Below, in pieces: positions 5,190-62,600 of a stretch of DNA of 64,000 nt. Source of the stretch: a virus (taxonomy: Duplodnaviria > Caudoviricetes). A program made the translations under genes and the position numbers. A model generated the notes under the pieces. It ran no database searches and was not told the DNA's origin. It saw only the letters and a program-made list of their open reading frames with translations. The stretch lies in the IMG/VR virus record IMGVR_UViG_3300003320_000853. One strand, 5' to 3'. Numbering within the stretch: position 1 is the stretch's first letter; each line of letters begins with the position of its first letter.

Positions 5190-5273
5190 GGCCGGTCTAC
5201 AAGCTCGGCCCGGCCAGGATCAATACACCGACCCCCAGGTTGATCCATGTACGGCCCCCGCTGTAGGAACGGC
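5190..5273. promoter_or_regulatory. Divergent pair of class A promoter-like motifs
   Basis: Minus: TTGATC (5223-5218)-N16-TGTAGA-N6-ATG 5189; plus: TTGATC 5240-N16-TGTAGG-N6-ATG 5274. Confidence 0.8.
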
Positions 5274-5561
5274 ATGCCCTCCAAGTTCCCCTACGGCCAG
5301 CTCGTCATGACCACGAACGCGATGGAAACCTTCTCCGCTGCGGAGAGGCTTGCCTCCCTGAACCGTCACCTGTCAGGAGACTGGGGCGCGGTCGCGACGA
5401 CCCCGGATGGGGCGGCGAACGATCAGGCCCTCAAGACGGGCGATCGGATTTTCAGTGTGTACAAGTTTCCCACCGCGAAGACGAGCGTATCCCGCACCCT
5501 CTGGATCGTCACCGAGGCGGATCGCTCGGTGACGACGCTGCTCTGTCCCGAGGACTACTAG
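5274..5561 (+). CDS. Conserved phage/plasmid small protein (RH-x-x-GDWG...TEADRS-x-TT family)
   Basis: FPYGQLVMT, RHLSGDWG, ANDQAL, LWIVTEADRSVTTLLCPEDY motifs typical of this mobile-element family. Confidence 0.8.
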   Translation: MPSKFPYGQLVMTTNAMETFSAAERLASLNRHLSGDWGAVATTPDGAANDQALKTGDRIFSVYKFPTAKTSVSRTLWIVTEADRSVTTLLCPEDY

Positions 5562-6070
5562 AGCCACCGGAGCGCGGCAGCGTTGCAGACCAAATGGGCG
5601 GTGTTGTCCACGATGATCAAGAGCCACACGGTGAGCCAGAGGTCCCGTCCCTTGAAGTAGCCGGTGCCCGAGCACTCCGACCATGGGTGGTTGTGGATCT
5701 TCTGCGGCGCATGGTAGACCATCACCCCCTTCCCACAGCTCCAACAGAGAACCTCACGCTCCTTGTCTTCGGCCTTGCCACACGCGGAACAGACCCATGC
5801 CTTCGGCACGTCGATCCATCGGGGGGCGAGGAAGTTCTTCGCCCACACGAGGTAGCGAGCGAGCCGGAATCGGTCGATGAGGAAGTGCGTCCCCGCGATG
5901 AAGAGGAGCGCCTTCCAGCTCGTCGTGAGGAACAGGAAGGGGATCGTGTAGGTGAGCGCGTGAGCGAGCGCCGGGACGCTGCTCTTCGTCTTGTTGACGG
6001 CCATGTAGTCCGATTGGATCGCGTAGTCGCCCACGAGGTGACAGAGAAGAATGTCTGCGGTCAGGAACAT
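5558..6070 (-). CDS. DUF3307-like membrane protein with an inserted Zn-ribbon
   Basis: HLVGDYAIQS, HALTY, HFLIDR, DNTAH motifs; CSACG...CWSCG insertion; class B motif 16 nt upstream. Confidence 0.75.
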   Translation of the reverse strand: MFLTADILLCHLVGDYAIQSDYMAVNKTKSSVPALAHALTYTIPFLFLTTSWKALLFIAGTHFLIDRFRLARYLVWAKNFLAPRWIDVPKAWVCSACGKAEDKEREVLCWSCGKGVMVYHAPQKIHNHPWSECSGTGYFKGRDLWLTVWLLIIVDNTAHLVCNAAALRWL

Positions 6071-6288
6071 CCCGGCCCGCTACACCGGCGACCGCTGCAT
6101 GAGTACGCCTTGCAGTAGCAGCGGGGTGGGCAGGGGCAGATGTTCGGGCATTCGTTGGCGTGTTCGCAGAACAAGGGACTGCCGAACATGCCAACTTCGG
6201 GAGGATCCTCGGGAGGTTCTTGCGGGGTCTCCCTTGGAGGGTGAACCAGGTCCCAGAACTCGGTGAGGTCGTCGCCCGGGTCGCTCAT
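6061..6288 (-). CDS. Small Cys-rich hypothetical protein
   Basis: 75 aa, CEHANECPNICPCPPRCYC; class B motif 16 nt upstream. Confidence 0.65.
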   Translation of the reverse strand: MSDPGDDLTEFWDLVHPPRETPQEPPEDPPEVGMFGSPLFCEHANECPNICPCPPRCYCKAYSCSGRRCSGPGCS

Positions 6289-6308
6289 CCCCGCAGTCTA
6301 CACCCGGA

Positions 6309-6680
6309 CTAGGCGGCCGGCTTCACGTCGGACGCGGGCTTGTCGGTAGGCGTCGGAGGAGTGACCGGGGCGGGCGGGGGCGGAGCGGCAGGCGCCGGAG
6401 CCGCAGGCTGAGACGGGAGAACCTGGGAGATCCCGTGGCCGAGAAGACCCGTCGTGGCCAGGCCAGCGACGCCGGCCATGGCCGCATCCGCCCAGCTCTG
6501 CCCCGAGGCCTGAGCTGTGAGCGTTGTCCCAACGAAGGACGTCAGGGCCGCGATGATCTGCGGCCACCGGCCGGGCAGGGACATCCAGAGAGGTGTGATC
6601 GCCGGGGAGAGCACGAGATGCACGCCCACGGAGAGGATGGGGATGAGAGACGTGAGGACGTGGAGGGTGTTCTGTGTCAT
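6309..6680 (-). CDS. Membrane protein with Pro/Ala-rich tail (holin-like topology)
   Basis: Hydrophobic segments followed by PAAPAPAAPPPP; GAAGGG upstream. Confidence 0.6.
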   Translation of the reverse strand: MTQNTLHVLTSLIPILSVGVHLVLSPAITPLWMSLPGRWPQIIAALTSFVGTTLTAQASGQSWADAAMAGVAGLATTGLLGHGISQVLPSQPAAPAPAAPPPPAPVTPPTPTDKPASDVKPAA

Positions 6681-16741: not shown

Positions 16742-16914
16742 GGGTCGATTACCTCCTGATCGACTATGGCACCCGATAAGGCGATCGTGGCGGGCCCCAT
16801 TTGTCAGACAACTGAACACCGCCCCCGCTACCCTACCTACACCAGGGGGATCACCGCCCTCGAAAATCTCACTAGGGCGGTTGATCGGGAGTGGGGGTCC
16901 GCTGTAGAGGGCAG

Positions 16915-17137: not shown

Positions 17138-17362
17138 ATGGGTTCCAACTACTACATCGTGAAGGTGCGCCTCCAGAAGGGCCGTCAGTGGCGCTCCGTG
17201 GGGCTGAAGTACGGTCCGGGAGAGGACGTCCCCCAGATGGTCGGGCACTTCGAGACGCTGCTGTCTGCCAAGCGGACAGCCAGGACGGTAGGGAGAGAGC
17301 GCCCTGACATCCACAGCATCGCCGTCTTCCTGAAAGGTAGGATTGTGGTCCGAATCCGTTGA
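17138..17362 (+). CDS. Hypothetical basic protein
   Basis: MGSNYYIVKVRL; class B upstream; stop inside the next class A -35 box. Confidence 0.7.
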   Translation: MGSNYYIVKVRLQKGRQWRSVGLKYGPGEDVPQMVGHFETLLSAKRTARTVGRERPDIHSIAVFLKGRIVVRIR

Positions 17363-17392
17363 TCGGCGGATGTGCCCCCTTGTAGGTGGGGC

Positions 17393-17575
17393 ATGGAAAT
17401 CATCTTCGGCCGGGGGTTCGGGAAAGTCTCGTTCAAGGGGTCGCTAGTCACCTACTGGAGTGACTTGAGTCTCAAGCGCGTCACGCGGCCGGCGGACGAG
17501 ATCCCGGAGGAAGAGCTACCGCTCTTCGACAAGGTTGTCTTGGACCAGATCCGGTGGCTCCGGCAGATGAACTAG
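17393..17575 (+). CDS. Hypothetical protein
   Basis: ATG exactly 34 nt from TTGATC 17359. Confidence 0.7.
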   Translation: MEIIFGRGFGKVSFKGSLVTYWSDLSLKRVTRPADEIPEEELPLFDKVVLDQIRWLRQMN

Positions 17576-18039: not shown

Positions 18040-18099
18040 CGTCCTCAGTCCTCGGTGTACACCGATTGATTGAGACTCTTTTCGCCCGGTAGAAGTAGC

Positions 18100-18744
18100 A
18101 TGCCTCCCGACTATACGCTTGACGAGTGGATGCGAGGCGTTCCGCCGCCTTCGTCGGCCCCTCCTGGCACGAAGGGGTACGTCTATGGGGTGGGTCTCAG
18201 CATTCGGAACAAGCTCATCCCCTACATGGCCCGGACAGGTGCAACCCCGCCCTTCGAAGTCGTGCATGTTCTGGAGGAGCACGAGGTCTTCGCGAAGGAC
18301 TTCTCGGAAGTGAGCCGCCTCCGGAACGAGCTGTTCAAGAAGCACGAGGCAGCTCGTGCAAAGGCCGCTGCCCGTGCCGCCGAGAAGGCCAGGAAGGCCG
18401 CAGAGGAGGCTGAACAACGTGCTCGGGCGGAGGAGCTTCGTCGGGCAGAGACGGGGAGGGTCGCAGCCCATTCGGATGGGCTGGCGATTCACTGGGCCAT
18501 CGTGCTCGACCCCGGGCCAGAGACTTTCGCCCTCTTCCTCACGACGCGTCCCGGCTGGGCTCGCTTCTACCGCCCCATCACCCGTGATGAGGAAGCGCTC
18601 GTTGGGATCCGACGGAATGAGAAGGGGACCTTCCTCGCTCCCGTCGTGCGCCCTCGGACCGAGTTCTCGTTCACCCCTCGGCAGTTCCCGGAGATCCGGG
18701 TCGCCGAGCTCCTCCTGGAGTTCCCTCGGGCATACGCTTCTTGA
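18100..18744 (+). CDS. Hypothetical protein
   Basis: ATG 34 nt from TTGATT 18066 (class A variant). Confidence 0.7.
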   Translation: MPPDYTLDEWMRGVPPPSSAPPGTKGYVYGVGLSIRNKLIPYMARTGATPPFEVVHVLEEHEVFAKDFSEVSRLRNELFKKHEAARAKAAARAAEKARKAAEEAEQRARAEELRRAETGRVAAHSDGLAIHWAIVLDPGPETFALFLTTRPGWARFYRPITRDEEALVGIRRNEKGTFLAPVVRPRTEFSFTPRQFPEIRVAELLLEFPRAYAS

Positions 18745-20792: not shown

Positions 20793-21350
20793 GTGAAAAC
20801 CGTGAAGGCGATCTGTGCCGAAGCCGAGTCCCATTTCGACCCCCAGAAGTCGTGGGCGGAGAACCTCGTGGGCATCGAGTTCCGCCACCGGGCTGCGGTA
20901 GCGCTCTGGCACTTCGTCCAGGACATGGACGAAGGTGGCTTCGCCCTGTGGTTCGAACGCGGCCATGGGGGGCACGGCCGGCGGACGCTCGGACCCTACG
21001 TGGCTCGGATGAACTGTCGGGTCACGCAACGGATCATCCAGATGATCAAGATCGTCTTTGCCAGGCGGGACATGGCGAAGATGATCGCCGGCCCGGTCGA
21101 ATACGCCGACCTCGATGCCGAGTGGCCCTCACTCCGGGAAGAATTCGTGGCGGCGGCCGAGCGCTTCGTCAACAAGTGCCCGGGCTGCGACTCGAAGAGC
21201 ATCGACGGAGGGCACCGCTTTAGCTGCTCCTACGTGAGAGGGACGGGACAGATCACCCTCCCCGTGGTCTTGGTCGGGGACAAGTTCGTGATCGACCGGG
21301 GGAATCCGCTTGCTTCGGCGGCCCTCGAAGCCATCAAGCGCCAGGGTTGA
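20793..21350 (+). CDS. DMP19/DUF4375-like protein
   Basis: FVQDMDEGGFALWFERG resembles the EVxNGGFxQ(Y/F)FxN signature; GTG 16 nt after class B motif. Confidence 0.55.
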   Translation: MKTVKAICAEAESHFDPQKSWAENLVGIEFRHRAAVALWHFVQDMDEGGFALWFERGHGGHGRRTLGPYVARMNCRVTQRIIQMIKIVFARRDMAKMIAGPVEYADLDAEWPSLREEFVAAAERFVNKCPGCDSKSIDGGHRFSCSYVRGTGQITLPVVLVGDKFVIDRGNPLASAALEAIKRQG

Positions 21351-21380
21351 TCGGCGTCGCTCGGGAGCGGTATAGACCCC

Positions 21381-21815
21381 ATGGCGGCGAGACGCGGACG
21401 AGTTCCCGAGTGGGAGGAACGCTTCTGCTACGTGGTCGAGTTTGACCAGATGCACGGGACGTTCGAATCCTGGTACGGATCCCCATGCCCGAAATGCACG
21501 GAGTACGTGGATCCGTCCTGGTCCCGCGATCCTCGGGACGACTCGTACCGTCGCCGTTTGGTTGAGGCTGGGTACAGCTTTCATCCGGCGGTCGACGACT
21601 GGAACCCGTGCTTCTACGGGGGTCTCGTCGGAGTCAGGATCGTCGAGAACACCGACGGTACCGCGAGGATCCGCATCACGGGCGCAGACGACACCGCCAT
21701 GTCCCTCGGTTGTCCCTCGGTTGCGGATGCACAGGAAGCGCTCAAGCGGCTCCTGGCCATGTCCTTCATCCCCATGAAGGGCGACCTCTTCATGATGGGG
21801 TACTACTGGGACTAG
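21381..21815 (+). CDS. Hypothetical protein
   Basis: ATG 34 nt from TTGATC 21347. Confidence 0.75.
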   Translation: MAARRGRVPEWEERFCYVVEFDQMHGTFESWYGSPCPKCTEYVDPSWSRDPRDDSYRRRLVEAGYSFHPAVDDWNPCFYGGLVGVRIVENTDGTARIRITGADDTAMSLGCPSVADAQEALKRLLAMSFIPMKGDLFMMGYYWD

Positions 21816-23904: not shown

Positions 23905-23944
23905 TCGGCAAACCTGGGCGCCTGTAGAAAAGATCGGAGGAAGC

Positions 23945-27645: not shown

Positions 27646-27682
27646 GATTGATCCGTGCCCACGACCGGCTGTATGAGCCGGC

Positions 27683-39741: not shown

Positions 39742-39771
39742 TCGCCAGCCGCTCGCCCCTGTAGAACCCCC

Positions 39772-40385: not shown

Positions 40386-40415
40386 TCGCCGTGCTCGACG
40401 TCCTGTAGGAGAGGC

Positions 40416-40978: not shown

Positions 40979-41008
40979 TCGGCGAGCGGGTTCCCTTGTA
41001 GGAGCGGC

Positions 41009-42903: not shown

Positions 42904-42947
42904 GCCGTCCCTGTTGATCGGCTGCGGGCCCTTCCTGTAGAACCCGC

Positions 42948-43447: not shown

Positions 43448-43488
43448 CACAAGGTTGATCGCAGCCTGCCGCGGGTTGTAAGAACGGC

Positions 43489-45776: not shown

Positions 45777-45806
45777 TCACCGAGCCCTCCCGTCTGTAGG
45801 AGGAGC

Positions 45807-46124
45807 ATGAGCACCGAGATCGCCAACGAGATCGCCCGCCAACTCGGCGGAACCCGCCGCCTCGCCGCCATGACCGGCGCCAGCAAGTTCACCGCGGATG
45901 GCCCGGCCCTCGTGTTCGCCCTCCCCAGCGGCAAGGCCAAGGACGGCATCAACAACGTCCGGATCACCCTCGACCAGGGGACCGACACCTACACCGTGCG
46001 CTTCATCCGCATCGGACGCGCCCCGAGCTTCAAGGTCACCCCCGTCCAGGAGACCTCCCTCGTCTACGCCGACCAGCTCAAGACGCTCTTCGAGCAGACC
46101 ACGGGCCTCTACCTCTCCCTGTGA
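45807..46124 (+). CDS. Conserved phage protein (QLGG...MTGA...DTY...VYADQL...TGL family)
   Basis: Class A promoter at 45773; family motifs. Confidence 0.8.
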   Translation: MSTEIANEIARQLGGTRRLAAMTGASKFTADGPALVFALPSGKAKDGINNVRITLDQGTDTYTVRFIRIGRAPSFKVTPVQETSLVYADQLKTLFEQTTGLYLSL

Positions 46125-47062: not shown

Positions 47063-47096
47063 TTGATCGCCAGCACCCCAGCCCTGTAGGAGAGGC
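47063..47096 (+). promoter_or_regulatory. Class A promoter-like motif (representative copy)
   Basis: TTGATC-gccagcaccccagccc-TGTAGG-agaggc-ATG. Confidence 0.85.
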
Positions 47097-47363
47097 ATGG
47101 GACGCTCAACGACTCCGACCTTCCGCTGTGAGATGAACATCAGCCGGGGCTCCATGACCCCCCTGGCCTGGGACACCAAGCACGCCGGCCGCCCCAGCGA
47201 CGCCACCCTCAAGGCTTTCGTCGAGCACTTCGAGGCGTCCACCCGCCAGGGCGGCGTCAACGCTCACCTCGGCCCCACCGTCGTCTGGTCGGCCAAAGTC
47301 ATCCGCCAGAGCACGGGCGATACCGTCGCCTCCTACCAGGGCCCGCTCTTCGCCGTCGTCTGA
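47097..47363 (+). CDS. Hypothetical protein
   Basis: Class A promoter at 47063. Confidence 0.75.
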   Translation: MGRSTTPTFRCEMNISRGSMTPLAWDTKHAGRPSDATLKAFVEHFEASTRQGGVNAHLGPTVVWSAKVIRQSTGDTVASYQGPLFAVV

Positions 47364-47676: not shown

Positions 47677-47858
47677 CCGGAGCCCCGGTCTCGACCCCCG
47701 GAGGGTCAAGCACTCGCTCGGGTCCGATGACGCTCGTCCATTCTCTACGGAAATGCCGCTGTAAGTCTACGCGACCCCTGGATCCCTCGGCCCATGTTGG
47801 CACGAGTTTTTCCGATCCCGAGGGTTGATCCCGATCCTCCCGGCCCTGTACTTGGGGC

Positions 47859-48044
47859 ATGACGCTCAACGAGTTGCTGAAGCTGGTGCCGGAATCCGAT
47901 CGTGACCTGCCGGTGTGCCTGTACACGGGCTGGGAAGGCGATGAGCGCCTTCCGGCAACGTCCGTGAAGGTCGTCGAGGGCGAGTACCTCGACGCCCAGT
48001 GGGGCCCGCAGACGGGCCGCCACATCCTCATCTCCCCGCGTTGA
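47859..48044 (+). CDS. Small hypothetical protein
   Basis: Class A promoter at 47825. Confidence 0.75.
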   Translation: MTLNELLKLVPESDRDLPVCLYTGWEGDERLPATSVKVVEGEYLDAQWGPQTGRHILISPR

Positions 48045-48258: not shown

Positions 48259-48299
48259 TTCATGGTTGATCGTGGTGCCCTTGGGCCTGTAGGAGGAGC

Positions 48300-48572
48300 A
48301 TGAACACGCCCTTCCAAATCCTCGCCCCCATCTACGTGAACATTGCCCAGGCGGCGGACGACCTCATCGCGAGTCTCTGCGCCCTCCGAAACCGGAACAG
48401 CTACATCGAGCGCTTGATCCTCCGCGCCATGGTCGACGAGATCACCGCCGACCGTGACGCCCTCTTGGGCGCCCTGCTGGCCCACCACGGGTGGACGGCC
48501 CAGGCCTTCGCGGATGTTGCCTGGTCGGACGAGGGCGACGCTTTCGAGGCCCTGCACGCGTACGTCGTCTGA
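48300..48572 (+). CDS. Hypothetical protein
   Basis: Class A promoter at 48266. Confidence 0.75.
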   Translation: MNTPFQILAPIYVNIAQAADDLIASLCALRNRNSYIERLILRAMVDEITADRDALLGALLAHHGWTAQAFADVAWSDEGDAFEALHAYVV

Positions 48573-48838: not shown

Positions 48839-48896
48839 TGGTCTATTTCGGGAGCAACGGGATTGATTGTGATCCGTCTTGGTCTGTAGGAGAGGC

Positions 48897-49211
48897 ATGA
48901 AGACCCCGAAGACTATGAAGAAGATGGGCCCTTACAACGCGAGCTTTTGGCAGACGGACGAGAACGGCGTGGCCTTTTCGGTGTGTGTCGTTCAGCTCGT
49001 GGACGGGAAGATCGTGCGGAGCAACGCGGCGCAGTGCACCGGCTTCGAGGGGACGGTCAACTACCATCTGTACTTCATGGCCCGGAACTCGCGGTTTGGG
49101 GGCAGGCCGGTCAAGACCTTCGTCTCGCAGGGGACGGACGGTTTCATCGCCGCTTGCGGTGGGGGCATCGCCAAGGTCTTCAGGAGCTCGATCGTCAGCC
49201 CGATCGAGTGA
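48897..49211 (+). CDS. Hypothetical protein
   Basis: ATG 34 nt from TTGATT 48863. Confidence 0.75.
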   Translation: MKTPKTMKKMGPYNASFWQTDENGVAFSVCVVQLVDGKIVRSNAAQCTGFEGTVNYHLYFMARNSRFGGRPVKTFVSQGTDGFIAACGGGIAKVFRSSIVSPIE

Positions 49212-49259
49212 TTTGTCGGCGGAGGTTGATCGCCATGCTCCTCGGACTGTAGGAGGGGC

Positions 49260-49514
49260 ATGAGCACGACGACCTACGCGGTTCTTCCTCTCCACGGTGA
49301 AGCCTACGTCTCCCTGAAGAACGGGTGCCTGACGCACCTCGTCGAGATGGGGAACTTCGTGCCCCAGTGCCGGGTTAAGGCGGAGCACGTGCTGGACGAC
49401 ACGACTCAGGCGAGCCACGACGCGCCGACGTGCAAGGTGTGCGCGAAGAAGCTGGCTCGGCTGGGTCTCGTGGCGGTCGAGAAGAACGGAACCAAGTTGT
49501 GGGAGAAGGTATGA
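49260..49514 (+). CDS. Zn-binding hypothetical protein
   Basis: Class A promoter at 49226; H...C...PTCKVC. Confidence 0.7.
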   Translation: MSTTTYAVLPLHGEAYVSLKNGCLTHLVEMGNFVPQCRVKAEHVLDDTTQASHDAPTCKVCAKKLARLGLVAVEKNGTKLWEKV

Positions 49515-50100: not shown

Positions 50101-50134
50101 TTGATCGGGAGAGGCTTCGGTCTGTAGGAGGGGT

Positions 50135-50320
50135 ATGAGCACCGAGACCAAGAAGACGACGCGAGACGATGTGATGGCCCTGATCAAGAGGGCGGAGCAG
50201 GAGAAGGCCCGGACGAAGTACATCAGCCAGTCGACGCTCCGCCGGATCTCCAGCGCGGGCTTCGAGTCCGGGATGGACCACGCGGAGTACCTCAAGCTGA
50301 CCGCGCATCTGTACAAGTGA
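50135..50320 (+). CDS. Small hypothetical protein
   Basis: Class A promoter at 50101. Confidence 0.7.
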   Translation: MSTETKKTTRDDVMALIKRAEQEKARTKYISQSTLRRISSAGFESGMDHAEYLKLTAHLYK

Positions 50321-50355
50321 TTGATCGGCGAACCCCCAACCTTGTAGGAGACACC

Positions 50356-50718
50356 ATGAACCCCGAGCGTGAAGCGATGGATGCCGAGTTCGGCGCTTTC
50401 GAGAACGAGTTCCAGGCGGCGTTTGCCCTCTCCCAGATGGAGGCGCCCGCGGACGACCGTGCGGAGATCGAGCGGGCGGTGAAGGCGGGCCGCTTCGTGG
50501 TGGTGGCTTCGACGCCCCGCTACTGCGCCCTGACGGACGCCCTCATGGGCGAGTTTCTCACCCTTCTCTCGGAGCACTCGACGTTCGAGGAGGCCGAGGC
50601 GGCCATGGTCAACGCCCTGGACGAGGGGGACGTGTGGTACACGGTGCGCGGGCCGAAGGCGGCGCCGGCCACCGTGGTGCCGTCGGGCGACGAGGACGAG
50701 GACAACATCCCGTTTTGA
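50356..50718 (+). CDS. Acidic protein ending in an SSB-tail-like motif (DEDEDNIPF*)
   Basis: Class A promoter at 50321; C-terminus resembles SSB DFDDDIPF. Confidence 0.75.
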   Translation: MNPEREAMDAEFGAFENEFQAAFALSQMEAPADDRAEIERAVKAGRFVVVASTPRYCALTDALMGEFLTLLSEHSTFEEAEAAMVNALDEGDVWYTVRGPKAAPATVVPSGDEDEDNIPF

Positions 50719-51789: not shown

Positions 51790-51824
51790 GTTGATCGGGG
51801 AGGGATCCGGACTGTAGGAGAGGC

Positions 51825-52103
51825 ATGAACACGCCGCGCATCATCGACGCCAAGGTCACCAACGAGAACGGCCGCTACGTGGTCACGCCCGTGTGGAGCG
51901 GGGTGGATCGTCCCGAGACGGGGAGCATCAGCACGGGGAAGACCAGCACGCTCGCTTTCCGGCTGGCCCAGGCGATGAAGTCGGGCCAGGCCTACGAGCG
52001 CGTCGAGGTCGTGACGGACGTGAACGGCAAGACGTTCGTTTCGGCCCTGCCTCGCTTCCGCGGGCGGTGTCTGAACGCCGATCTTCTGCGTCTTGGGTTC
52101 TAG
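51825..52103 (+). CDS. Hypothetical protein
   Basis: Class A promoter at 51791. Confidence 0.75.
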   Translation: MNTPRIIDAKVTNENGRYVVTPVWSGVDRPETGSISTGKTSTLAFRLAQAMKSGQAYERVEVVTDVNGKTFVSALPRFRGRCLNADLLRLGF

Positions 52104-52747: not shown

Positions 52748-52793
52748 TCGTCGTTTGTGTTGATCGTCGTCGGCGGCGTCTTGTAGAGGGGAC

Positions 52794-53129
52794 ATGGACA
52801 CCAAGAAGCGCGACGAGATCATCCAGAAGCTGGCGACCTACATCCTCCACTACTGCCCGATGGGGGCGTTGCAGCGGGGGGAGGTATGTGACGTGGCCCT
52901 CTGCTATCCCCGGAAATCCGGGTTCAACGGAACGATCACGGCGCAAGAGGTCAAGCGCCTGGCAGACGGGAGCCTGCTCGACCTCTCCCTCAAGGACATC
53001 AAGGCGGTCGCGACGAGCAGGAAGCTCGCTCGTCTCGTCGGGGTGTACCGGACGAGCTTCATCAAGGCGACCAGCTCGAAGGACAAGGGGTCGATCCGGC
53101 TCAGCCAGCGCGGGCCTGGGGGTTCCTGA
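52794..53129 (+). CDS. Hypothetical protein
   Basis: Class A promoter at 52760. Confidence 0.75.
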   Translation: MDTKKRDEIIQKLATYILHYCPMGALQRGEVCDVALCYPRKSGFNGTITAQEVKRLADGSLLDLSLKDIKAVATSRKLARLVGVYRTSFIKATSSKDKGSIRLSQRGPGGS

Positions 53130-53148: not shown

Positions 53149-53712
53149 ATGAGGATCTACATCGGAACGAAGCCGGGGAACGTGAAGGACTACGCGATGC
53201 GGGACGCCAAGTGGCGGTTCGCCGCCCCGAGCAGCATCACGTGCAAGCCGGTCGGGTCGATCGTGCCCGAGCAGCCGTGGGGGCTGGAGGAGACGACCAT
53301 CGGCGCCGAGTATCGCGCCTCAGAGACCGAGCTCGCCGTCTGCAACGGTCGCTCGCTGGAGCCCGACGAGGTCTGCATCGGGTGCGAGAACGGCATCTGG
53401 ACGCTCGTCCAGAGCGCGGATCCCGAGAAGTGCGTCTACATCGACCCGGCCGTCATCGTGGCTCGCACCGCCAAGGGCGTCTTCCACACGGTGAGCATGG
53501 GGATCCAGGTGCCGACCAAGTACGTCCTGGAGGCCAAGGAGATCCTGGCAAGCGGCGACAAGGACATCACGGTCGGCAAGGTCATTGCCAAGCACCTCGG
53601 GTGCGATCACACCGACTGGCACCACGCGATCACGCACGGGCGCTACAGCCGCCGGACGATTCTCGGCGAGGCGTTCTACTCCCTGCTCTCGCAGATCCCC
53701 GATCTCGGTTGA
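53149..53712 (+). CDS. Inosine/xanthosine triphosphatase (YjjX-like)
   Basis: IYIGT...VK, SIVPEQPWGLEETTIGAEYRA, IGCENGI, ITHGRYSR. Confidence 0.8.
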   Translation: MRIYIGTKPGNVKDYAMRDAKWRFAAPSSITCKPVGSIVPEQPWGLEETTIGAEYRASETELAVCNGRSLEPDEVCIGCENGIWTLVQSADPEKCVYIDPAVIVARTAKGVFHTVSMGIQVPTKYVLEAKEILASGDKDITVGKVIAKHLGCDHTDWHHAITHGRYSRRTILGEAFYSLLSQIPDLG

Positions 53713-53745
53713 TCGTGCGGTCTCGGCTCCTGTAGGAGTAGAATC

Positions 53746-54021
53746 ATGAACATCACGTCCCCGAAATCCATCTTCGTCGTCGTGGGCCACACGGGCAAGT
53801 ACGACGACGCGACCTCTTGGAACGTCGGTGCGTCCCGGAACGTCCACAGGGCGAACGCGCTCCGCGACCGACTGAACGAGTGGTGCAAGGCGAACGGCTT
53901 CGACCCGTCGCGCAACGGCATCGTGTACACCTCGGAGAAGCCCGAGGAAGACCCTCAGTTCATCTGCCTCGACGGCACGTCCTACACGGTCGACGAGATC
54001 CCGGATCTCGACGTCGATTGA
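53746..54021 (+). CDS. Hypothetical protein, paralogue of the C-terminal domain of 36607-37191
   Basis: Class A promoter at 53709. Confidence 0.75.
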   Translation: MNITSPKSIFVVVGHTGKYDDATSWNVGASRNVHRANALRDRLNEWCKANGFDPSRNGIVYTSEKPEEDPQFICLDGTSYTVDEIPDLDVD

Positions 54022-54051
54022 TCCGCTGACCCCTTTCTCTGTAGAGGGGTC

Positions 54052-54201
54052 ATGCTCGTCATCCTTCCCTCGGTCAAGCGCATGAGCGACGCTCAACTCG
54101 TGGCGGAGCTTCTCTCCTATCAGGGGATCGTCCTCTCGAAAGAGGCGCGCCGCCGCCGGAACCGGGTGGCCCAAGAGATCGATCGGAGGATCCATGTGTG
54201 A
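54052..54201 (+). CDS. 49-aa protein, paralogue of 54909-55160
   Basis: ATG 34 nt from TTGATC 54018; MSDAQLVAELLSY...RRNRVAQEIDRRI. Confidence 0.7.
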   Translation: MLVILPSVKRMSDAQLVAELLSYQGIVLSKEARRRRNRVAQEIDRRIHV

Positions 54202-54574
54202 CTTGCGCGTAGGCTATTACGTCGGAGAATATTTCACAGCGTACGACTGGGATGCCAAGAAGGTGAGGCGCTGGATCTGCGTCGCCTACGATCCCAACGT
54301 CGACTACTTCTGCACGACGGTCGACGACCTCGGTCCGCAGCGGCTGACGGACATCAGCATCCGGGCCATCGGCCGCACGTGGCACGAAACGTTCGAAGCA
54401 GACTTCCACGACCCCGCGCTTCTCGTCTTCGTGGTGCAGTCTGCGCAGAAGGGGAACGCGGATTTCGGGAACGACCCCCGGATCGCGGCGCTTTCCGAGA
54501 GTGATCGGCAGCTTCTGTCCAGGGTGTATGAAGGATCGTACGCTTCCTTCAAGAAGTGGGGACGGTTGGGTTGA
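54194..54574 (+). CDS. Hypothetical protein
   Basis: Stop inside next class A box. Confidence 0.7.
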   Translation: MCDLRVGYYVGEYFTAYDWDAKKVRRWICVAYDPNVDYFCTTVDDLGPQRLTDISIRAIGRTWHETFEADFHDPALLVFVVQSAQKGNADFGNDPRIAALSESDRQLLSRVYEGSYASFKKWGRLG

Positions 54575-54604
54575 TAGAAAACACCCTCCCTCTGTAGAAC
54601 ACCC

Positions 54605-54895
54605 ATGATGACGATCATCCCCTCCGACACCCACACCACGGTCACCTTCTCCGGGAACCTCATGGTGGACGGGCAGGGCCTCATGGGCGAGGCCGAGGCG
54701 TTCATCAAGAACGTCGAGGGTGATGTCGTGATCGACATCACGGCGGTCACCGAGCTGGGCATCCAGGGTGCATGGCTCGTCGCTTCGATGTGGAAGTCGG
54801 CGCCGCGGTGGACGATGATCACCATCCGCGCGACTCCGCGCTATGCGCCCCTCTTCAAGCTCATCCGCATCCGGGCGGATGTCCTGGCGGTGTAA
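54605..54895 (+). CDS. STAS-like (anti-anti-sigma-like) protein
   Basis: VTFSGNL...VVIDITAVTELGIQGAWL...PLFKLI follows the STAS pattern. Confidence 0.55.
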   Translation: MMTIIPSDTHTTVTFSGNLMVDGQGLMGEAEAFIKNVEGDVVIDITAVTELGIQGAWLVASMWKSAPRWTMITIRATPRYAPLFKLIRIRADVLAV

Positions 54896-55163: not shown

Positions 55164-56345
55164 ATGAACGCAGGACAGAAGCTCTACGAGGCGCACGGCA
55201 TCCTTCGGGAGTGCTTCGGCGACAATGGGGTATGGGCCGATCCGAGCCGGTACCGCCGGCAGTGCTGGACGCGGGACTTCGGGCTCGCCATACAGCCCCT
55301 CCTCCTCACGTTCGCGGAACGCGACTCGATGCACAGAAGAGCAGGGAACTGCGATTCGGCGGAGCAGACGATCGCCGAGCGGCACCTTTGTAGTCTCGAA
55401 GCCAGGCAGCGGCCGGACGGCCAGATCCCGATCGTCTTCCTCGACGGATGGCGCGGGCATGCCCGCTTCCTCTCCGACAAGATCGCGAGGAGCCTCCGGG
55501 ACAGGAAGCTCTCCTTCATGCTCGGGCGCTACCTCCAGGGGCAGCTCGGACAGCTCACCCCTGGGACGCGGGACAGCGAGCTCCTCTACATCGTCGCGGC
55601 TCTCGAACATGCGGAAAGAACCGGCCTGTTCCCGGTCTCCATGGATTCGATCAAGCTGGCGATGCGGTACATCAAGAGGAACCTGCTCGACTCGCGGGGC
55701 CTGCTCCTCGGCGCCGATTGGCGGGACACGATGCACCTCCAGCTCCGGGAGAAGCCGCTCCTCACGAACAATGCGCTCCTCTTTCACGCCTACGATCTCT
55801 TGTCGCGGCACGGCGACAACAAGTCGTTCTGGGAGACGCAGGCGCATCTCCAGCGCGATCTCATCAACAAGGTCTTCTGGGATGGCAGCCTCCTCCAGGA
55901 CTGGCCGAGGAACAACAACTCGAAGCAGCGGTTCGACCCCCTCGGGGCGAGTCTCGCCGTGCTCTTCGACGTCATCCCGCCCGAGCGGTACGCTGATGTG
56001 TGGAAGGGGTTCGATTCCGTGGACTCGCCCTACGGGGTGACGATCAGGTGCCGTCACAACCCGGTTCGTCCCGAGGAGGGGGCGATCATCGAGCGGACGG
56101 ATGGCCAGGTCATCTGGCCATTCGTGGTCGGCTTCGCCGCGATGGCGATGGACAAGATGGCCAAGAAGACGGGCTTGAACCCCTTCGAGGCGAGTCGGCA
56201 GCTCTACAAGCTCTACAACCTCGAAGGCTTCCGCGAATGGTACGACCCGGCGACGGGGAAGGGCTATGGGGCCCAGCGCCAGCTCTGGTCGGCGACCCTC
56301 TTCACGCGGGCCTACCTCGCGATCAATCCTGACTCCATCGGTTGA
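55164..56345 (+). CDS. Six-hairpin glycoside hydrolase (amylo-alpha-1,6-glucosidase / GH100-like)
   Basis: CWTRD, QRPDGQIP, DSELLY, DWRD, IWPFV, FREWYD...G-x-G...QLWSA. Confidence 0.8.
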   Translation: MNAGQKLYEAHGILRECFGDNGVWADPSRYRRQCWTRDFGLAIQPLLLTFAERDSMHRRAGNCDSAEQTIAERHLCSLEARQRPDGQIPIVFLDGWRGHARFLSDKIARSLRDRKLSFMLGRYLQGQLGQLTPGTRDSELLYIVAALEHAERTGLFPVSMDSIKLAMRYIKRNLLDSRGLLLGADWRDTMHLQLREKPLLTNNALLFHAYDLLSRHGDNKSFWETQAHLQRDLINKVFWDGSLLQDWPRNNNSKQRFDPLGASLAVLFDVIPPERYADVWKGFDSVDSPYGVTIRCRHNPVRPEEGAIIERTDGQVIWPFVVGFAAMAMDKMAKKTGLNPFEASRQLYKLYNLEGFREWYDPATGKGYGAQRQLWSATLFTRAYLAINPDSIG

Positions 56346-56375
56346 CTGGTCCGGCCGTTCGATTGTAGAACGGCC

Positions 56376-56651
56376 ATGGACACCAAGATCATCGTCCGTG
56401 GCAGCGGCCCCCTGGCTGGATTCGAAGCGCGGGTCATCGCGGCAGAGCTGGATTGCGAGTCCGACGACGGGCTGCTCCTGACACTCGACCGCGCCTACGA
56501 GCTCGGCGGGCAGTCCCACACGACTGCCGTCATCCTCCACACGAACGGTCTGCTCCTCACGGTCGTGGGCGCCTTCGACCTTCTCCACGTCCCGACGGAG
56601 CAAATGTTGCTGCTCCAGAAGCTCAACGACGAACTTCTTGGAAGGGGTTGA
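56376..56651 (+). CDS. Hypothetical protein
   Basis: ATG 34 nt from TTGACT 56342. Confidence 0.7.
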   Translation: MDTKIIVRGSGPLAGFEARVIAAELDCESDDGLLLTLDRAYELGGQSHTTAVILHTNGLLLTVVGAFDLLHVPTEQMLLLQKLNDELLGRG

Positions 56652-56681
56652 TCAGGAACGGCCTGGACCTGTAGTAGGGGC

Positions 56682-56954
56682 ATGAACACCACGAACATCA
56701 CCGCGGCTGACACTCTCTCGATTCAGGATTTCGCGACCCGCACGGCCGCCGTCGAGATCGTCGCCATGCGCGACAACCTCTCGATCTTCGAGGTGACCTT
56801 CCAGTCCCTCGATCTCAATGATGCCGGTTCGCGGGACAAGTTCACCCGCGAGGTTCCGGCCAAGAGTGAGGCGGAGGCCCGTGCCCTCGCCGAGGCGTGG
56901 GCAGACGGCGCCGAGGTCGTCGAGATCGAAGAGACCTCGGCTCTCAGCGCGTAA
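56682..56954 (+). CDS. Hypothetical acidic protein
   Basis: Class A promoter at 56648. Confidence 0.75.
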   Translation: MNTTNITAADTLSIQDFATRTAAVEIVAMRDNLSIFEVTFQSLDLNDAGSRDKFTREVPAKSEAEARALAEAWADGAEVVEIEETSALSA

Positions 56955-57018
56955 CCCCAACGACCGGAAAAATGGCCCGCTGAGTTGATCGGCGGGCCCT
57001 TTGATCTGTAGAGGGGAC

Positions 57019-57333
57019 ATGAACATGACCTTCAACCCTGTGATCCTGGCCTACGTGAAGTCTGAGACCCGTGAGGGGGTCGTCCACACGATCCGCATGG
57101 GCAGGGATGGAAACGTCTACTGCTCGTGCGAGGCGTGGAAGTACCAGAGCAAGCCGGTCACGGAGCGTACCTGCAAGCACCTCCAGGCTTTCGCTCTTCA
57201 GGCGAACCTCCCCAACGTGGCGCTACTTCGCCAGATGGCAGCCATGATGGCCCCTCCGGCTCCGAAGCCGGCCCCGGTCCGCAGGGCGACGGCCACGAAG
57301 CCGAACCCCTGGACGACTCCCCTCCCCCACTGA
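57019..57333 (+). CDS. SWIM zinc-finger protein
   Basis: YCSCEAWKY...TCKHL (CxC...CxH). Confidence 0.8.
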   Translation: MNMTFNPVILAYVKSETREGVVHTIRMGRDGNVYCSCEAWKYQSKPVTERTCKHLQAFALQANLPNVALLRQMAAMMAPPAPKPAPVRRATATKPNPWTTPLPH

Positions 57334-57537: not shown

Positions 57538-57614
57538 CCATCCTTGGTATCCTTCGGACATGCACCGATCGATCCTCGATTGATCCCCAGCCAGGGGCCC
57601 TTGTAGACCAGAGC

Positions 57615-58136
57615 ATGGTCGAAGGAACCCCCGAGTCCGCGGTCCTCGCGGCACGGCTGCTCGTCTTCATCGTGTTGTTGCCCTTCAGGGGCCTCTATCT
57701 GCTCGGCGTGCTCGGTGCTCACGGATACCGCCGGCTCTTCGTGCGGCGTCCGCCTGTCCGGCAGCTCGTCGACTACAAGCTCCGCCAGCTCCCGGACAGC
57801 TTCCGGTCGGGCATCCAGTGGTCGATCACGATCGACGGCCGGGCGTACCGGATCGCGTCGGTAGACGACCTCCCCGAGGAACACCGGGAAACGATGCGCG
57901 CCAGGCTGGCGAGCCAGGCAGAGGCCATTCACCAGATTCTCGGCGTGCCCGCTCTTCCGCCCGCTCCCGCAGTCCCGGAACCGCCGAAGGACGATGGAGA
58001 CCGGCCACAGGACATCGCCGATGAGCTGAGCGCGTTGAATCCCGTGCGGGGATGGGATGATCATGTCTCGATCCCGGCCCCAAGCGATAGCTGGGGCTCA
58101 GAAGGCAGCGGCGGGGGATCTTCGGGCAATTGGTGA
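57615..58136 (+). CDS. Membrane-anchored hypothetical protein
   Basis: Class A promoter at 57580; N-terminal TM; GGGSSGNW end. Confidence 0.7.
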   Translation: MVEGTPESAVLAARLLVFIVLLPFRGLYLLGVLGAHGYRRLFVRRPPVRQLVDYKLRQLPDSFRSGIQWSITIDGRAYRIASVDDLPEEHRETMRARLASQAEAIHQILGVPALPPAPAVPEPPKDDGDRPQDIADELSALNPVRGWDDHVSIPAPSDSWGSEGSGGGSSGNW

Positions 58137-58207
58137 TACCCAAGACGGTGTAGGATCATCCATGGCGTTGATTGGGCGCCAGCCTTCGCTGTAGAACCGG
58201 CAGATCC

Positions 58208-58606
58208 ATGAAGAAACACGTCACAGCCGCCGCAGCGCTCATCTGGGGTGTCGCCCCGGAAACCAGGGGCCGCATCTTGAGCGTCTCCCGGAAGAACGAC
58301 CCCGCCGACCTCGGTCTCCCTGGGGGAAAGGTCGAGCCTGGCGAGACCCCCTACGAGGCCATGGTCCGGGAGGTCTTCGAGGAGACGGGCATCCGCGTTC
58401 GCGCAGCCAAGCTCGTCTTCGAGAGACCCGACGGCCCGCATATCGTCCAGACGTTCTTCGTCACCGAGTGGGAAGGCACGCCCGGTAACACGAAGGAGAC
58501 GGGACGCGTCAAGTGGGTCGAACTGGGAGACATGCTCGCCGAGGAGTGCCGCTCCTTCCGGGAGTACAACGCCGCTCTCTTCTGCCACCTTGGCTTGGAG
58601 GTATGA
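58208..58606 (+). CDS. Nudix hydrolase
   Basis: Nudix box GGKVEPGETPYEAMVREVFEETG. Confidence 0.93.
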   Translation: MKKHVTAAAALIWGVAPETRGRILSVSRKNDPADLGLPGGKVEPGETPYEAMVREVFEETGIRVRAAKLVFERPDGPHIVQTFFVTEWEGTPGNTKETGRVKWVELGDMLAEECRSFREYNAALFCHLGLEV

Positions 58607-60319: not shown

Positions 60320-60705
60320 GCGATCCCGAGACGAACGACCTCCCCGAGTATTGGGATAACCTCCTGCCTGGGATCGACATCCCCCGTCTGTCGGAGGACA
60401 AGCTCCGGGAGTTCGTGCTCGGCGTCCTCGATGGGCGGATCTACATCGACCGCCAGGTGGGCAACCCCGAGGACGTCGGGCATGTATTCTTCCCGCTCCT
60501 CTTCGGCGCGTTCTCGGGCTACAACGAGGACAGCCTGAAGAGCTACGTCGGCTGCATCTACGAGTACATGGACCAGGCGCTCCCCCGCAGCATCAACGGG
60601 AGGCCGTGCTTCGCGTCGATGCGGATCCTCCACACGGAGGACTGGAAGCGGGCCCATGCCGCCATCGTCGCCGAGCAAGAGCGTCGCAAGAACATCCCGA
60701 TCTAG
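60316..60705 (+). CDS. Hypothetical protein
   Basis: GTGA overlap; IYEY...PRSINGRPCF. Confidence 0.7.
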   Translation: MSDPETNDLPEYWDNLLPGIDIPRLSEDKLREFVLGVLDGRIYIDRQVGNPEDVGHVFFPLLFGAFSGYNEDSLKSYVGCIYEYMDQALPRSINGRPCFASMRILHTEDWKRAHAAIVAEQERRKNIPI

Positions 60706-62177
60706 AGCTCATCGTCCATCAGGTGCTCGAACGCGGTGCGCCGGACGACCTTCCTCCAGATCCCCGAGGCGAAGTCTCTGAGCGGGATGGAGCGTCGCCG
60801 CTTCACCTTCCGATCCACGACGTGGACGATCTCCCTCGCGACGTCGACGGTGACGACTTCGATTTCGGTCTTGTCGGTCAGGTGCTCCCATTCATCCCCG
60901 GACACGGGCAAGACTTCCGGGACAGAAGGCGCGTCACCTTCCACGATCGACCATGCGCGATGGAGATTCATGAAATCCGCGTAGAGCATCGTGTTCCGCT
61001 GTTCGGGAATGCCATCGTCCGTGGCCGACGCCCGACGGAAGGTGACCGCTTCGCCCCCGTAGGACGTCGACGGACGGCCCGTGACCTCGACGAGATCCCC
61101 CGTCGCCCGGTTCACCCAGAGCGAGCGGGCCGTGGGGATGCCCAACGCTTCCCCGTCGACCTCGGGCGGCTCCGGCACCGGCACGGAGGGCGCCACAGGA
61201 GGGTTCCGGGGGAAGCTCGGCGGGTTCGAGGTGTACACGACGCCTGAGCGAACCGGGAGGATGTCTCCGTTGAGGTTGCGCCGTCCAAGCTCGACCTCTT
61301 CGCGGAGAGCCTCCTGCGGACCCCGGACGAGTTCGAGGAGAGCGTTGTGCGTCGAGGGTGCTGGACGGCCCGGGGCGCCCCCCAGACGGGAGACAGGGGA
61401 AGTCGAGACGCGGCCCACATCGCGAGATTGGATCGCGATCGAGTGAAGACTTTCGGGGCCTGTCACCACGTGAATCGGGACGCCTTGAAAGGCGCGAGCT
61501 CCGAGAGGCCCGCCGATGACCTCTCGCTCGTGGGTGCGATAGAAATGACCCCAGACCTGTGGGGTGACGTCGATCCTACGGATGGGGATCAGGTTCGCCT
61601 CCATGTAGGTGCGCAGCTCGATCATGGTGTCCCAGAACCATTCGTCCGTGTGGGTTCCGGGGGGCTCGGCCACCGTTCCCCACTGGTAGCTGCACTTCGA
61701 GCAGCTCCACACGTGGAACGTTCCGTTCCGGGTCACGTTCGACGTTGCTCGGTCGTCGCATGCGGGGCAGCCGTCGTTGACGATGGGCTGCGGAACCTCG
61801 GCCGCCCCCGGGTGCTCGCTCATGTCGAGCGTCGCCGAGGTCCCGATGGGCATGTGGCGGGGGCAAACCCATTCCGGGGTCGCGTCGCGATCCATCCGGA
61901 AGACTCCCGCCAGCCGGCAGCCTCGACGAGAACACCCCATTCCGTGGGTCGGCGCGGCTTGAACAAACCTCCACAAATCAATGCGGTTCGCGGGAACACG
62001 GGTTCGGTTGCCCGTCATGCTGACGAGGGTGATGACGTTGGGCGCAAGCTCGGCGACGACAGCCCGAGCGGTACGCCCGGTGAAAGGGTCGGTCGTTTCC
62101 CACAGCTCGCAGACTTGCGGATCTCCGCTAGGCACCGTGAACCTCCACCATGATCCCCCGAACAGAGTTTCCTCCAT
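60702..62177 (-). CDS. Multidomain protein (Zn-ribbons, repeated small beta domains) with C-terminal tag (RRTAFEHLMDDEL*)
   Basis: Long ORF; the true start may be 62214 if indels are present. Confidence 0.75.
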   Translation of the reverse strand: MEETLFGGSWWRFTVPSGDPQVCELWETTDPFTGRTARAVVAELAPNVITLVSMTGNRTRVPANRIDLWRFVQAAPTHGMGCSRRGCRLAGVFRMDRDATPEWVCPRHMPIGTSATLDMSEHPGAAEVPQPIVNDGCPACDDRATSNVTRNGTFHVWSCSKCSYQWGTVAEPPGTHTDEWFWDTMIELRTYMEANLIPIRRIDVTPQVWGHFYRTHEREVIGGPLGARAFQGVPIHVVTGPESLHSIAIQSRDVGRVSTSPVSRLGGAPGRPAPSTHNALLELVRGPQEALREEVELGRRNLNGDILPVRSGVVYTSNPPSFPRNPPVAPSVPVPEPPEVDGEALGIPTARSLWVNRATGDLVEVTGRPSTSYGGEAVTFRRASATDDGIPEQRNTMLYADFMNLHRAWSIVEGDAPSVPEVLPVSGDEWEHLTDKTEIEVVTVDVAREIVHVVDRKVKRRRSIPLRDFASGIWRKVVRRTAFEHLMDDEL

Positions 62178-62252
62178 CCACGTGCGCCTTGCACGATCGC
62201 GGGGTGGTGACCATGCTCGACGACTACACCGGGCCGGTGTACCAGGATCGGG

Positions 62253-62570
62253 ATGAGCAACGACATGAAGGACAACCCGTGCGACGGGAAGGACGTGGTC
62301 ACGCTGGGGCCCGAGATCACACCGGGGGTGCATCCCTGCGTTCGCCACAATGCGAACCACGAGATCACCGTAGGGGTGCTCCACGTCGTGAAGGACGGCG
62401 ATCCCGTGCCGGAGAACGCCCTCATCCTTCAAAAGGGAGAGGGCACGACGTACCACGTCGTGGGCGAGGCGAAAGCCACCTCGCATGGCCCGGCCCAGGT
62501 GGCCACCGACACGTACCGCCGGAACTGGGAGTCCATCTTCGGGGCCCGTCAGGTCGTCGGCCAGGCTTGA
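62253..62570 (+). CDS. Hypothetical protein
   Basis: Class B at 62236; GPAQVATDTYRRNWESIFG; stop inside next class A box. Confidence 0.75.
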   Translation: MSNDMKDNPCDGKDVVTLGPEITPGVHPCVRHNANHEITVGVLHVVKDGDPVPENALILQKGEGTTYHVVGEAKATSHGPAQVATDTYRRNWESIFGARQVVGQA

Positions 62571-62600
62571 TCCGAGGGTCTCCTCTCCTGTAGGAGGACC

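Follow-up and report, generated by a model that had tools for sequence, protein, structure and literature searches.

Introduction

The σ factors encoded by phages read promoters of their own: gp36 of phiEco32 uses tAATGTAtA, gp47 of phage 7-11 uses GTAAtg-N16-aCTA, and transcription starts 6–9 bp downstream (PMC8948821). Among the extracytoplasmic function (ECF) σ factors, ECF11 (RpoE-ChrR) has the promoter consensus TGATCC-N16-CGTA (PMC5507510). In Deinococcus-Thermus and Actinobacteria, a TANNNT −10 motif lies shortly ahead of the start codon of leaderless genes (PMC12340547, PMC4633059). The main survey of huge phages mentions σ genes and no promoters (PMC7162821), and our literature search found no description of the motif reported here, TTGATC-N16-TGTAG. 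This motif occurs about 40 times in a stretch of 64,000 nucleotides from a virus (Duplodnaviria; Caudoviricetes; IMG/VR record IMGVR_UViG_3300003320_000853), hereinafter the window, for which an earlier note made from the letters alone had proposed a leaderless regulon. Our analysis is best read, with a probability of about 0.6, as showing that the motif, designated class A, represents a promoter class particular to the phage, from which leaderless mRNAs of accessory, probably early, genes would arise.

Leaderless promoters adjacent to open reading frames (ORFs) and promoters of phage σ factors are already known, and the promoter regulon described here is well supported. Like the latter promoters (PMC8948821), class A has a phage-specific consensus unlike that of the host, and the consensus differs among related phages with diverged σ factors. 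The bipartite layout and the 16-nt spacer are shared with the 7-11 promoters, and the TGTA core with those of phiEco32; the start site lies 6–9 bp past the downstream box there, while the 7 nt typical of class A is the distance to the ATG. However, phiEco32 and 7-11 are coliphages of ~77 kb with 6–8 middle or late promoters and leadered mRNAs, whereas class A numbers tens per genome, serves accessory genes and abuts the start codon. The candidate σ factor also differs from those of phiEco32 and 7-11 in its large insertion in σ region 2 (σR2).

Similarities to ECF11 promoters are the TGATC(C) box, the rigid spacer of ~16 nt, the short downstream box ending in GTA and the promoter in front of a gene for a candidate σ. 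Unlike in ECF11, the spacer is one base shorter when TGATCS and YGTA serve as anchors of the alignment, TGTAG takes the place of CGTA downstream, the phage σ-like protein cannot be linked by its sequence to one ECF group more than another, and a ChrR-like anti-σ was not seen. The leaderless genes of Deinococcus-Thermus and Actinobacteria likewise place a −10-like box a short, constant distance ahead of the ATG, lack a Shine-Dalgarno (SD) sequence and make up a large share of genes; their TANNNT is read by the housekeeping σ with a weak or absent −35, whereas class A has an obligatory −35-like box and no A-11/T-7 pattern. The early promoters of T4 resemble class A in that dozens of near-consensus copies precede small, fast-evolving accessory genes in genome arms, but they are canonical σ70 promoters with leaders and SDs.

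Results

Class A has two near-invariant boxes and a fixed free spacer

The strict motif TTGATC-N16-TGTAGR occurs 28 times in the window, 27 times on the plus strand, against an expectation of 0.00 from 100 dinucleotide-preserving shuffles. The shorter form TTGATC-Nx-TGTAG has 30 copies at x = 16 and none at x = 10–15 or 17–23. With one or two mismatches tolerated there are about 40 credible copies, 39 of them on the plus strand; a copy was taken as credible if its boxes carry no more than two mismatches and a start codon is in register or SD-led. Specifically, 30 of the 40 are exact, seven have one mismatch and three have two (18066, 21347, 56342). All 41 coordinates given in the earlier note exist, and 40 have credible boxes and a start; the site at 48041 is doubtful, as it reads TTGACC...GAGTAG and has no start codon nearby. 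Two further one-mismatch matches, 24753(−) and 56326(−), stand ahead of no gene and are probably chance occurrences.

The logo of class A reads R-TTGATC-G/C, a free spacer, Y-TGTAG-R-A, and nnnn-C-ATG, with almost zero information at the 14 central spacer positions. A spacer of exactly 16 nt is found in 129 of 136 copies, namely 30/30 in the window, 72/75 in the related genome G002 and 27/31 in the related genome G004. The claims that the class is real and that its spacer is constant in length and free in sequence are thus both borne out. A spacer fixed this strictly between two boxes is also a mark of promoters that depend on ECF σ factors.

Two near-invariant boxes, separated by a 16-nt free spacer and oriented toward a gene, constitute the bipartite layout of σ70-family promoters. 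The housekeeping TANNNT is absent: no register gives both A at position 2 and T at position 6, logo position 30 is G, C or A and never T, and TGTAGR taken as the hexamer has G at position 2. As noted earlier, the final T of the σ70 −10 element is missing, and this is so for both hexamers that could serve as the −10 box. With the A of ATG as +1, TGTAGR occupies −12 to −7 and TTGATC −34 to −29.

The distance from TGTAG to the start codon (d) is 7 nt in 30/40 copies and 8 nt in 4/40. Distances of 9, 10, 13, 17 and 18 nt occur in one copy apiece, and the site at 16881 has a ~65-nt leader. The two long gaps (17 nt at 23901 and 18 nt at 33071) contain GGAGG 5–7 nt ahead of the ATG, confirming that an SD appears where the ATG is distant. 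The accompanying claim that SDs are often missing is right for many copies and not universal. About half of the copies read TGTAGGAG, with GGAG(G) 3–4 nt ahead of the ATG, which is too close for a good SD, yet present. The densest stretch is the one named previously, with 29/40 copies within 36.5–58.2 kb.

The sites are listed below (aa, amino acids; G002 and JACCDG011865052.1, abbreviated JACCDG, are relatives described in the next section).

5187..5223, −: exact, d = 7; divergent partner of 5240
5240..5276, +: exact, d = 7; boxes kept and spacer different at the G002 orthologue
16881..16908, +: exact, ~65-nt leader, then a 31-aa hydrophobic ORF (16981-17076)
17359..17395, +: exact, d = 7
18066..18102, +: weak variant TTGATT...GGTAG, two mismatches, d = 7
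21347..21383, +: weak variant, GGTAT replacing TGTAG, d = 7; exact class A site at the G002 orthologue
23901..23947, +: exact, 17-nt gap with GGAGG SD, 736-aa gene; GGTGTA-N10-ATG instead at the JACCDG011865052.1 orthologue
27648..27685, +: one mismatch (TGTAT), d = 8
28244..28280, +: exact, d = 7; conserved at the G002 and JACCDG orthologues
33071..33118, +: exact, 18-nt gap with GGAGG SD
34591..34629, +: exact, d = 9
36573..36609, +: one mismatch (TGTAC), d = 7; GGTGTA box within the spacer
37585..37621, +: TGTAGT, d = 7
38389..38426, +: exact, d = 8; conserved at the JACCDG orthologue
38965..39001, +: exact, d = 7
39185..39221, +: exact, d = 7
39738..39774, +: exact, d = 7, SD absent (TGTAGAACCCCCATG); conserved at the JACCDG orthologue, spacer diverged
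40382..40418, +: exact, d = 7
40975..41011, +: exact, d = 7; TGA of TTGATC is the stop codon of the upstream gene
42914..42950, +: exact, d = 7
43455..43491, +: one mismatch (TGTAA), d = 7
45773..45809, +: exact, d = 7
47063..47099, +: exact, d = 7
47825..47861, +: one mismatch (TGTAC), d = 7
48266..48302, +: exact, d = 7
48863..48899, +: one mismatch (TTGATT), d = 7
49226..49262, +: exact, d = 7
50101..50137, +: exact, d = 7
50321..50358, +: exact, d = 8; conserved at the JACCDG orthologue
51791..51827, +: exact, d = 7
52760..52796, +: exact, d = 7; G002 orthologue likewise class A
53709..53748, +: exact, d = 10
54018..54054, +: exact, d = 7
54571..54607, +: one mismatch (TTGATA), d = 7
56342..56378, +: weak variant (TTGACT), d = 7
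56648..56684, +: TGTAGT, d = 7
56985..57021, +: exact, d = 7
57580..57617, +: exact, d = 8
58168..58210, +: one mismatch (TTGATT), d = 13, NUDIX gene
62567..62603, +: exact, d = 7, GTG start

The class A boxes are conserved in related phages

A megablast of 8 kb of the window against 50,697 GenBank phages gave zero matches, an exact 42-mer of the window has no match in IMG/VR, and protein-based locus searches with two genes of the dense region found zero relatives. With the 736-aa gene as query, the one phage reached was a distant relative of 53% G+C (G001), which has neither class A nor the class B box described below and uses SDs. Relatives were found by scanning IMG/VR with the motif itself, and the exact copies of TTGATC-N16-TGTAG in them are as follows.

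G002, 350 kb: 72 copies
G003, 234 kb: 49 copies, same phage as G002
G005, 128 kb: 24 copies, same phage as G002
G004, 275 kb: 27 copies

The reversed pattern, used as a control, has 0 copies in each of the four. Both G002 and G004 show synteny with the window, and amino-acid identity is about 46%. The third lineage is represented by a GenBank metagenome contig of 144 kb, JACCDG011865052.1, in which 13 copies fall within a single stretch of 13.7 kb. The registers TGTAG+7 and GGTGTA+10 are common to all these motif-bearing relatives.

Selection on the boxes was assessed by aligning the 72 exact G002 sites, chosen on G002 only, to G004, where 23 were alignable. Substitutions amount to 2.9% in TTGATC, 2.6% in TGTAG and 1.4% in ATG, compared with 20.9% in the spacer and 11–13% in flanking coding DNA. 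Purifying selection acts on the boxes, and the spacer is left to drift. The promoter class is kept as well, with class A at both members of 22 of 29 G002/G004 orthologue pairs. Between the window and G002 or JACCDG011865052.1, orthologues that are 30–62% identical in amino acids keep the boxes and have unrelated spacers. Turnover also occurs, in that the 736-aa gene has class A with an SD leader in the window and class B in JACCDG011865052.1.

A variant −10 box is found in a fourth lineage, G007 (312 kb), which has 34 copies of TTGATC-N13-GGCATA, mostly 8 nt ahead of the ATG. The GGCATA form has zero copies in G002 and G004, and the TGTAG form did not turn up in G007. Since TA-N8-ATG is constant in both variants while the −35 box shifts by one base, the start codon tracks the −10 box and not the −35 box, as would be expected if the former determines where transcription starts.

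G002 also carries an array of 39 tRNA genes and a transfer-messenger RNA (tmRNA) with the tag ANDNALVPMQMAA at 242.6-265.7 kb (L152-L153); a further tRNA, whose UCA anticodon reads UGA, lies apart from the array at 302161. The tag is of the ANDN type and looks like those of proteobacteria and myxobacteria, which hints weakly at the host.

Class A is a probable promoter of leaderless genes

The window (64% G+C) has 132 genes by codon-bias gene calls, of which 36 have class A, 25 class B, 24 an SD and 47 no signal. Genes without class A or B mostly abut or overlap the upstream gene (29/47 of those without a signal and 15/24 of those with an SD). Of the 36 class A genes, 31 follow a co-directional gene, with a gap of 26–45 nt in 20, 6–25 nt in 2 and >45 nt in 9, and the remaining 5 are divergent. 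In the 26–45-nt gaps the class A promoter is the entire intergenic region, and the TGA of TTGATC is often the upstream stop codon. Within the dense region neither canonical σ70 promoters (2 versus 1.8 expected) nor intrinsic terminators (13 versus 10.6 expected) are enriched, so a separation of the cassettes by such elements was rejected. A scan of the window with Rfam found zero families, and a tRNA search found zero tRNAs.

As the earlier note had it, the element behaves as a promoter: it has two boxes and a rigid free spacer, it always points at the downstream gene, and it occurs back-to-back at 5223(−)/5240(+). In G002 the tRNA(UCA) gene is preceded by TTGATC-N14-GGTGTAC, which ends 11 nt ahead of the tRNA, and many tRNAs of the array have GGGTAC or GGTGTA ~9–10 nt upstream. 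The sites ahead of tRNAs, the divergent copies and the SD-bearing leaders point to a probable transcription signal rather than a translation signal. A repeated mobile element was rejected because the spacers are unrelated.

The mechanism that we propose starts with a bacterial-type RNA polymerase (RNAP) holoenzyme, which would bind R-TTGATC-S as the −35-like and Y-TGTAG-R-A as the −10-like element, exactly 16 bp apart. From the register of the ATG we infer that RNA would start ~7 nt past TGTAG, at the A of ATG or within a base or two, and 34/40 copies place the ATG at d = 7–8, fitting +1 at the start codon. An mRNA that starts at the ATG has no leader and therefore no ribosome-binding site, and its translation would proceed by 5'-end-dependent (leaderless) initiation. 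Because ribosomes use a start codon that lacks an SD solely when it stands at the 5' end, each accessory gene or short coupled run would need its own promoter, which would explain the one promoter per 26–45-nt gap and the roughly 70–100 copies per genome. The leaderless reading proposed previously fits in two respects, the fixed register of the ATG and the translational coupling predicted for most genes that lack the motif, and the layout is as expected if most cistrons are translated solely from a 5'-terminal AUG.

Beyond the class A site at 16881, the segment 16881-17110 contains a ~65-nt leader with a GGGCCC-GAAA-GGGC hairpin, the very hydrophobic 31-aa ORF and a G+C-rich terminator-like hairpin. 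The ORF (16981-17076) is a candidate small membrane peptide, possibly holin- or toxin-like.

Class A and class B serve different genes

A second signal, designated class B, reads GGTGTA-N10-ATG. Its box lies 10–11 nt before the start codon, no upstream box is present, and C stands at −1. About 25 window genes carry it, on both strands, for example:

1022: class B
6086, −: class B
13894, −, and 13909, +: class B
22207: class B
46689, −: class B
53133: class B

Class B is conserved in G002, G004, G007 and G008, a more distant relative, with 29–51 copies (29 in G007) versus 0–2 for the control. It precedes ClpX, NAD-ligase, SNF2 helicase, transglycosylase, AAA proteins, two DNA methylases, tRNAs and the head of the virion operon. 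The two classes occur in the same genomes and share the leaderless layout and the TGTA core, but class B lacks the upstream box and has its TA 10 nt, not 8 nt, before the ATG. As TA at −12/−11 is two bases farther from the ATG than in class A, the two classes are probably read differently. Hybrids of the form TTGATC-N14-GGTGTA occur six times in G002.

In G002, the median length is 91 aa for class A genes and 169 aa for class B genes. Class A genes cluster in the two arms of the contig, and hardly any lie at 100–260 kb, a region that holds the baseplate, terminase, DNA polymerase and helicase genes. The recognizable ones encode an ArdC-like/M78 protein, a DUF1848 protein and a cytidylyltransferase-like protein; in the window, the gene behind the 58168 site encodes a NUDIX hydrolase. 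Short genes, location in the arms and avoidance of the core indicate that class A is an accessory-gene regulon. The earlier description, small early genes of host takeover, agrees with these genes as far as short accessory genes such as the ArdC-like and NUDIX ones are concerned; early timing is not readable from sequence, although it is a reasonable reading of the kinds of gene served.

Three further window genes encode an ADP-ribosylglycohydrolase (6704-7678, −; E 2e-61), a Bax1-inhibitor/YccA-like membrane protein (13871-14656, +; E 3e-42) and a cytidylyltransferase-like protein (3669-4898, −).

Relatives encode a candidate σ factor

The search for σ and RNAP genes suggested in the earlier note was run in the relatives. 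It yielded a σ-like protein of ~300 aa, named as sigma-24 family by the Joint Genome Institute (JGI); RNAP β/β' Pfam domains were found in neither G002 nor G004, whose contigs are 58–73% complete and from which divergent phage RNAPs could escape. The protein has the segments DLLQHIW and NHFxNWVRTKKRR, typical of regions 2.2 and 2.4, more than 100 residues apart, and a C-terminal σR4-like helix-turn-helix; some members have a CxxCxGxG zinc-finger pair in the insertion. It gives a weak match to Pfam Sigma70_r2 (E 0.035). A structure search independent of Foldseek (VIA-align) places ECF σR2 domains on top, with AlgU at Z 6.6, σE region 2 at Z 6.0 and SigW at Z 5.8 among many such domains at Z 5–6.6, which suggests a σ-like fold for the AlphaFold model, a mediocre one with a predicted local distance difference test (pLDDT) score of 64.

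The gene is part of a tandem σ-like pair, located as follows.

G002 L172:6163-7071, −: σ-like pair
G007 L204:2980-3738 with 3765-4592: σ-like pair

The first member is the ECF-like σ with an insertion of >100 aa in σR2; the second, of ~265–275 aa, has σ-like motifs and no Pfam match. An exact class A promoter precedes the σ-like gene of G002, and 14 nt farther upstream stands a GGTGTA box, a rare arrangement. That of G007 has a GGCATG variant with an SD leader, and the second σ-like gene follows it.

Two other proteins have σ-like features. In G008 (IMGVR_UViG_3300001398_000002), a 511-aa ORF resembles two fused N-terminal modules of the σ-like protein. In G002, L150:12424-13209 (−) encodes a 261-aa protein with σ region 4 in its middle (Pfam E 3e-13, nearest SigF/FliA) and no region 2; its gene adjoins an exonuclease, near the terminase, and it may be a late-gene regulator.

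GATC in the −35 box may be methylated

The −35 box contains GATC, through which, as the earlier note suggested, adenine methylation could gate the promoter. GATC is frequent, at 9.8 per kb, and at Markov expectation (observed/expected 1.06; range 0.94–1.06), neither depleted nor in excess, and as a sign of methylation pressure this ratio is uninformative. A methylase of the D12/Dam family lies behind a class B-like box in both G002 and G004, and an N6_N4 methylase adjoins the σ genes of G002. As the relatives encode a Dam-family methylase, methylation of GATC in the class A −35 box is possible.

Discussion

We lean toward a phage-encoded ECF-like σ as the reader of class A. It would have a σR2 split by an insertion and a C-terminal σR4-like helix-turn-helix, and it would not be the housekeeping σ of the host. 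This assignment, which we infer, is favoured because the spacer is invariant, the −10 box is lineage-specific, none of the GTDB genomes scanned has repeated strict copies, and the candidate σ gene lies behind the motif of its own lineage in two relatives. The earlier suggestion of an alternative or phage-encoded σ is plausible in view of the non-canonical −10 box with its lineage-specific form, the rigid spacer and the ECF-like gene behind the motif in relatives.

A different view, possible though in our judgement doubtful, is that class A comprises early promoters read by a host σ, either an unusual housekeeping factor or an alternative, ECF11-like one; the phage σ-like genes driven by class A would in turn redirect transcription toward class B and the late genes. 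Such an order is familiar from T4, SPO1 and phiEco32, in which host-read early promoters are followed by phage factors that switch transcription. Genes transcribed at the outset of an infection depend on an enzyme that the cell already contains, and class A drives small accessory genes, the ArdC-like anti-restriction protein and the σ-like genes themselves. TTGA is the first four bases of the universal −35 element, the motif resembles host ECF11 promoters, TGATCC-N16-CGTA, and the single box of class B resembles the promoters of phage σ factors lacking region 4 (phiEco32 gp36, tAATGTAtA). However, A at −11 and T at −7 are lacking in every register, the spacer does not vary as that of housekeeping promoters does, and the −10 box varies among phage lineages while class B is constant. 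The scan of host genomes with the motif, suggested in the earlier note, did not reveal the host: among 185,579 GTDB species genomes the strict motif occurs 28 times, roughly as often as chance predicts and never twice in one genome, although the host may be unsampled and host promoters may match more weakly. TTGATC could alternatively be bound by an activator of the phage that takes over from −35 recognition, as in σ appropriation by MotA/AsiA, with σ reading TGTAG alone. The constancy of TTGATC across lineages with differing −10 boxes and σ orthologues, its position at −34 to −29, one base nearer than the canonical −35, and the six TTGATC-N14-GGTGTA hybrids of G002 would suit such an activator; the rigid 16-nt spacing and a two-domain σ-like protein explain the data without an extra factor, and a MotA- or AsiA-like gene was not found, though no search was aimed at one; we consider an activator improbable.

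Least probable, to the point of being hardly credible, is that class A acts at the RNA level, as a processing site that makes leaderless ends or as a structured translation signal in long polycistronic transcripts. The terminators between cassettes are not enriched, and in the window the 3' portion of the spacer shows a tendency to be complementary to the nucleotides that immediately precede the ATG, leaving TGTAG in the loop (28 class A sites, e.g., 38389, 38965, 54018, 56342; z 3.6 versus permuted pairs, p about 0.001). However, the pairing is not reproduced in G002 (z 1.0) or G004 (z −2.0), and the hairpin was dropped as a core feature because it is absent there. Moreover, two sequence-specific boxes with a free spacer of fixed length typify protein–DNA recognition, divergent back-to-back copies cannot share one transcript, and copies of the motif stand ahead of a tRNA gene and of genes whose leaders bear an SD.

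Several observations weigh against a leaderless promoter class read by a phage σ. GGAG(G) stands near the ATG in about half of the copies, and a subset in G002 has GGAG(G) at 6–7 nt (d = 10), so some translation may come from read-through transcripts. The −10 register is an assumed one, as taking TA as −12/−11, as in class B, puts the ATG 2 nt too close, and TGTAGR was therefore placed at −12 to −7. The link to σ is circumstantial: Foldseek, PDB sequence and profile searches with the σ-like protein gave nothing significant, and the fold match of the model is middling (Z below 8, pLDDT 64). G008 has a relative of the σ yet zero TTGATC-type sites in 155 kb. The σ orthologues of G002 and G007 are 28% identical and differ in the residues of the putative recognition helix, yet the −35 box is identical, which weighs against a simple picture of co-evolution. 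Typical ECF −35 boxes contain AAC, and the TTGATC box has no AAC core, the ECF11 type (TGATCC) being the one that it resembles. Autoregulated ECF σ genes carry their own promoter, but a promoter ahead of the σ gene fits an early, host-read gene equally well.

Taken further, the phage-specific promoter class may belong to a private regime of this clade, in which an insertion-bearing σ co-evolves with the lineage-specific −10 box, 70–100 leaderless one-gene units per genome make up the regulon and free the accessory genes from dependence on the host σ and on ribosome-binding sites, and a Dam-family methylase of the phage times the regulon or shuts it off via GATC; we regard this extended picture as speculative.

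From the motif comes a rule, which we checked in four phage lineages, for recognizing gene starts and transcription units in a clade of uncultured phages of 300–400 kb whose genes are mostly unannotatable, and it lets start codons be placed exactly in gene calling. About half of the genes in the accessory arm would bypass ribosome-binding sites. The candidate σ–promoter pair has natural variants (TGTAG versus GGCATA), and if the link to σ is true, it would offer compact orthogonal promoter and σ parts and would be an example of promoter–σ co-evolution in huge phages.

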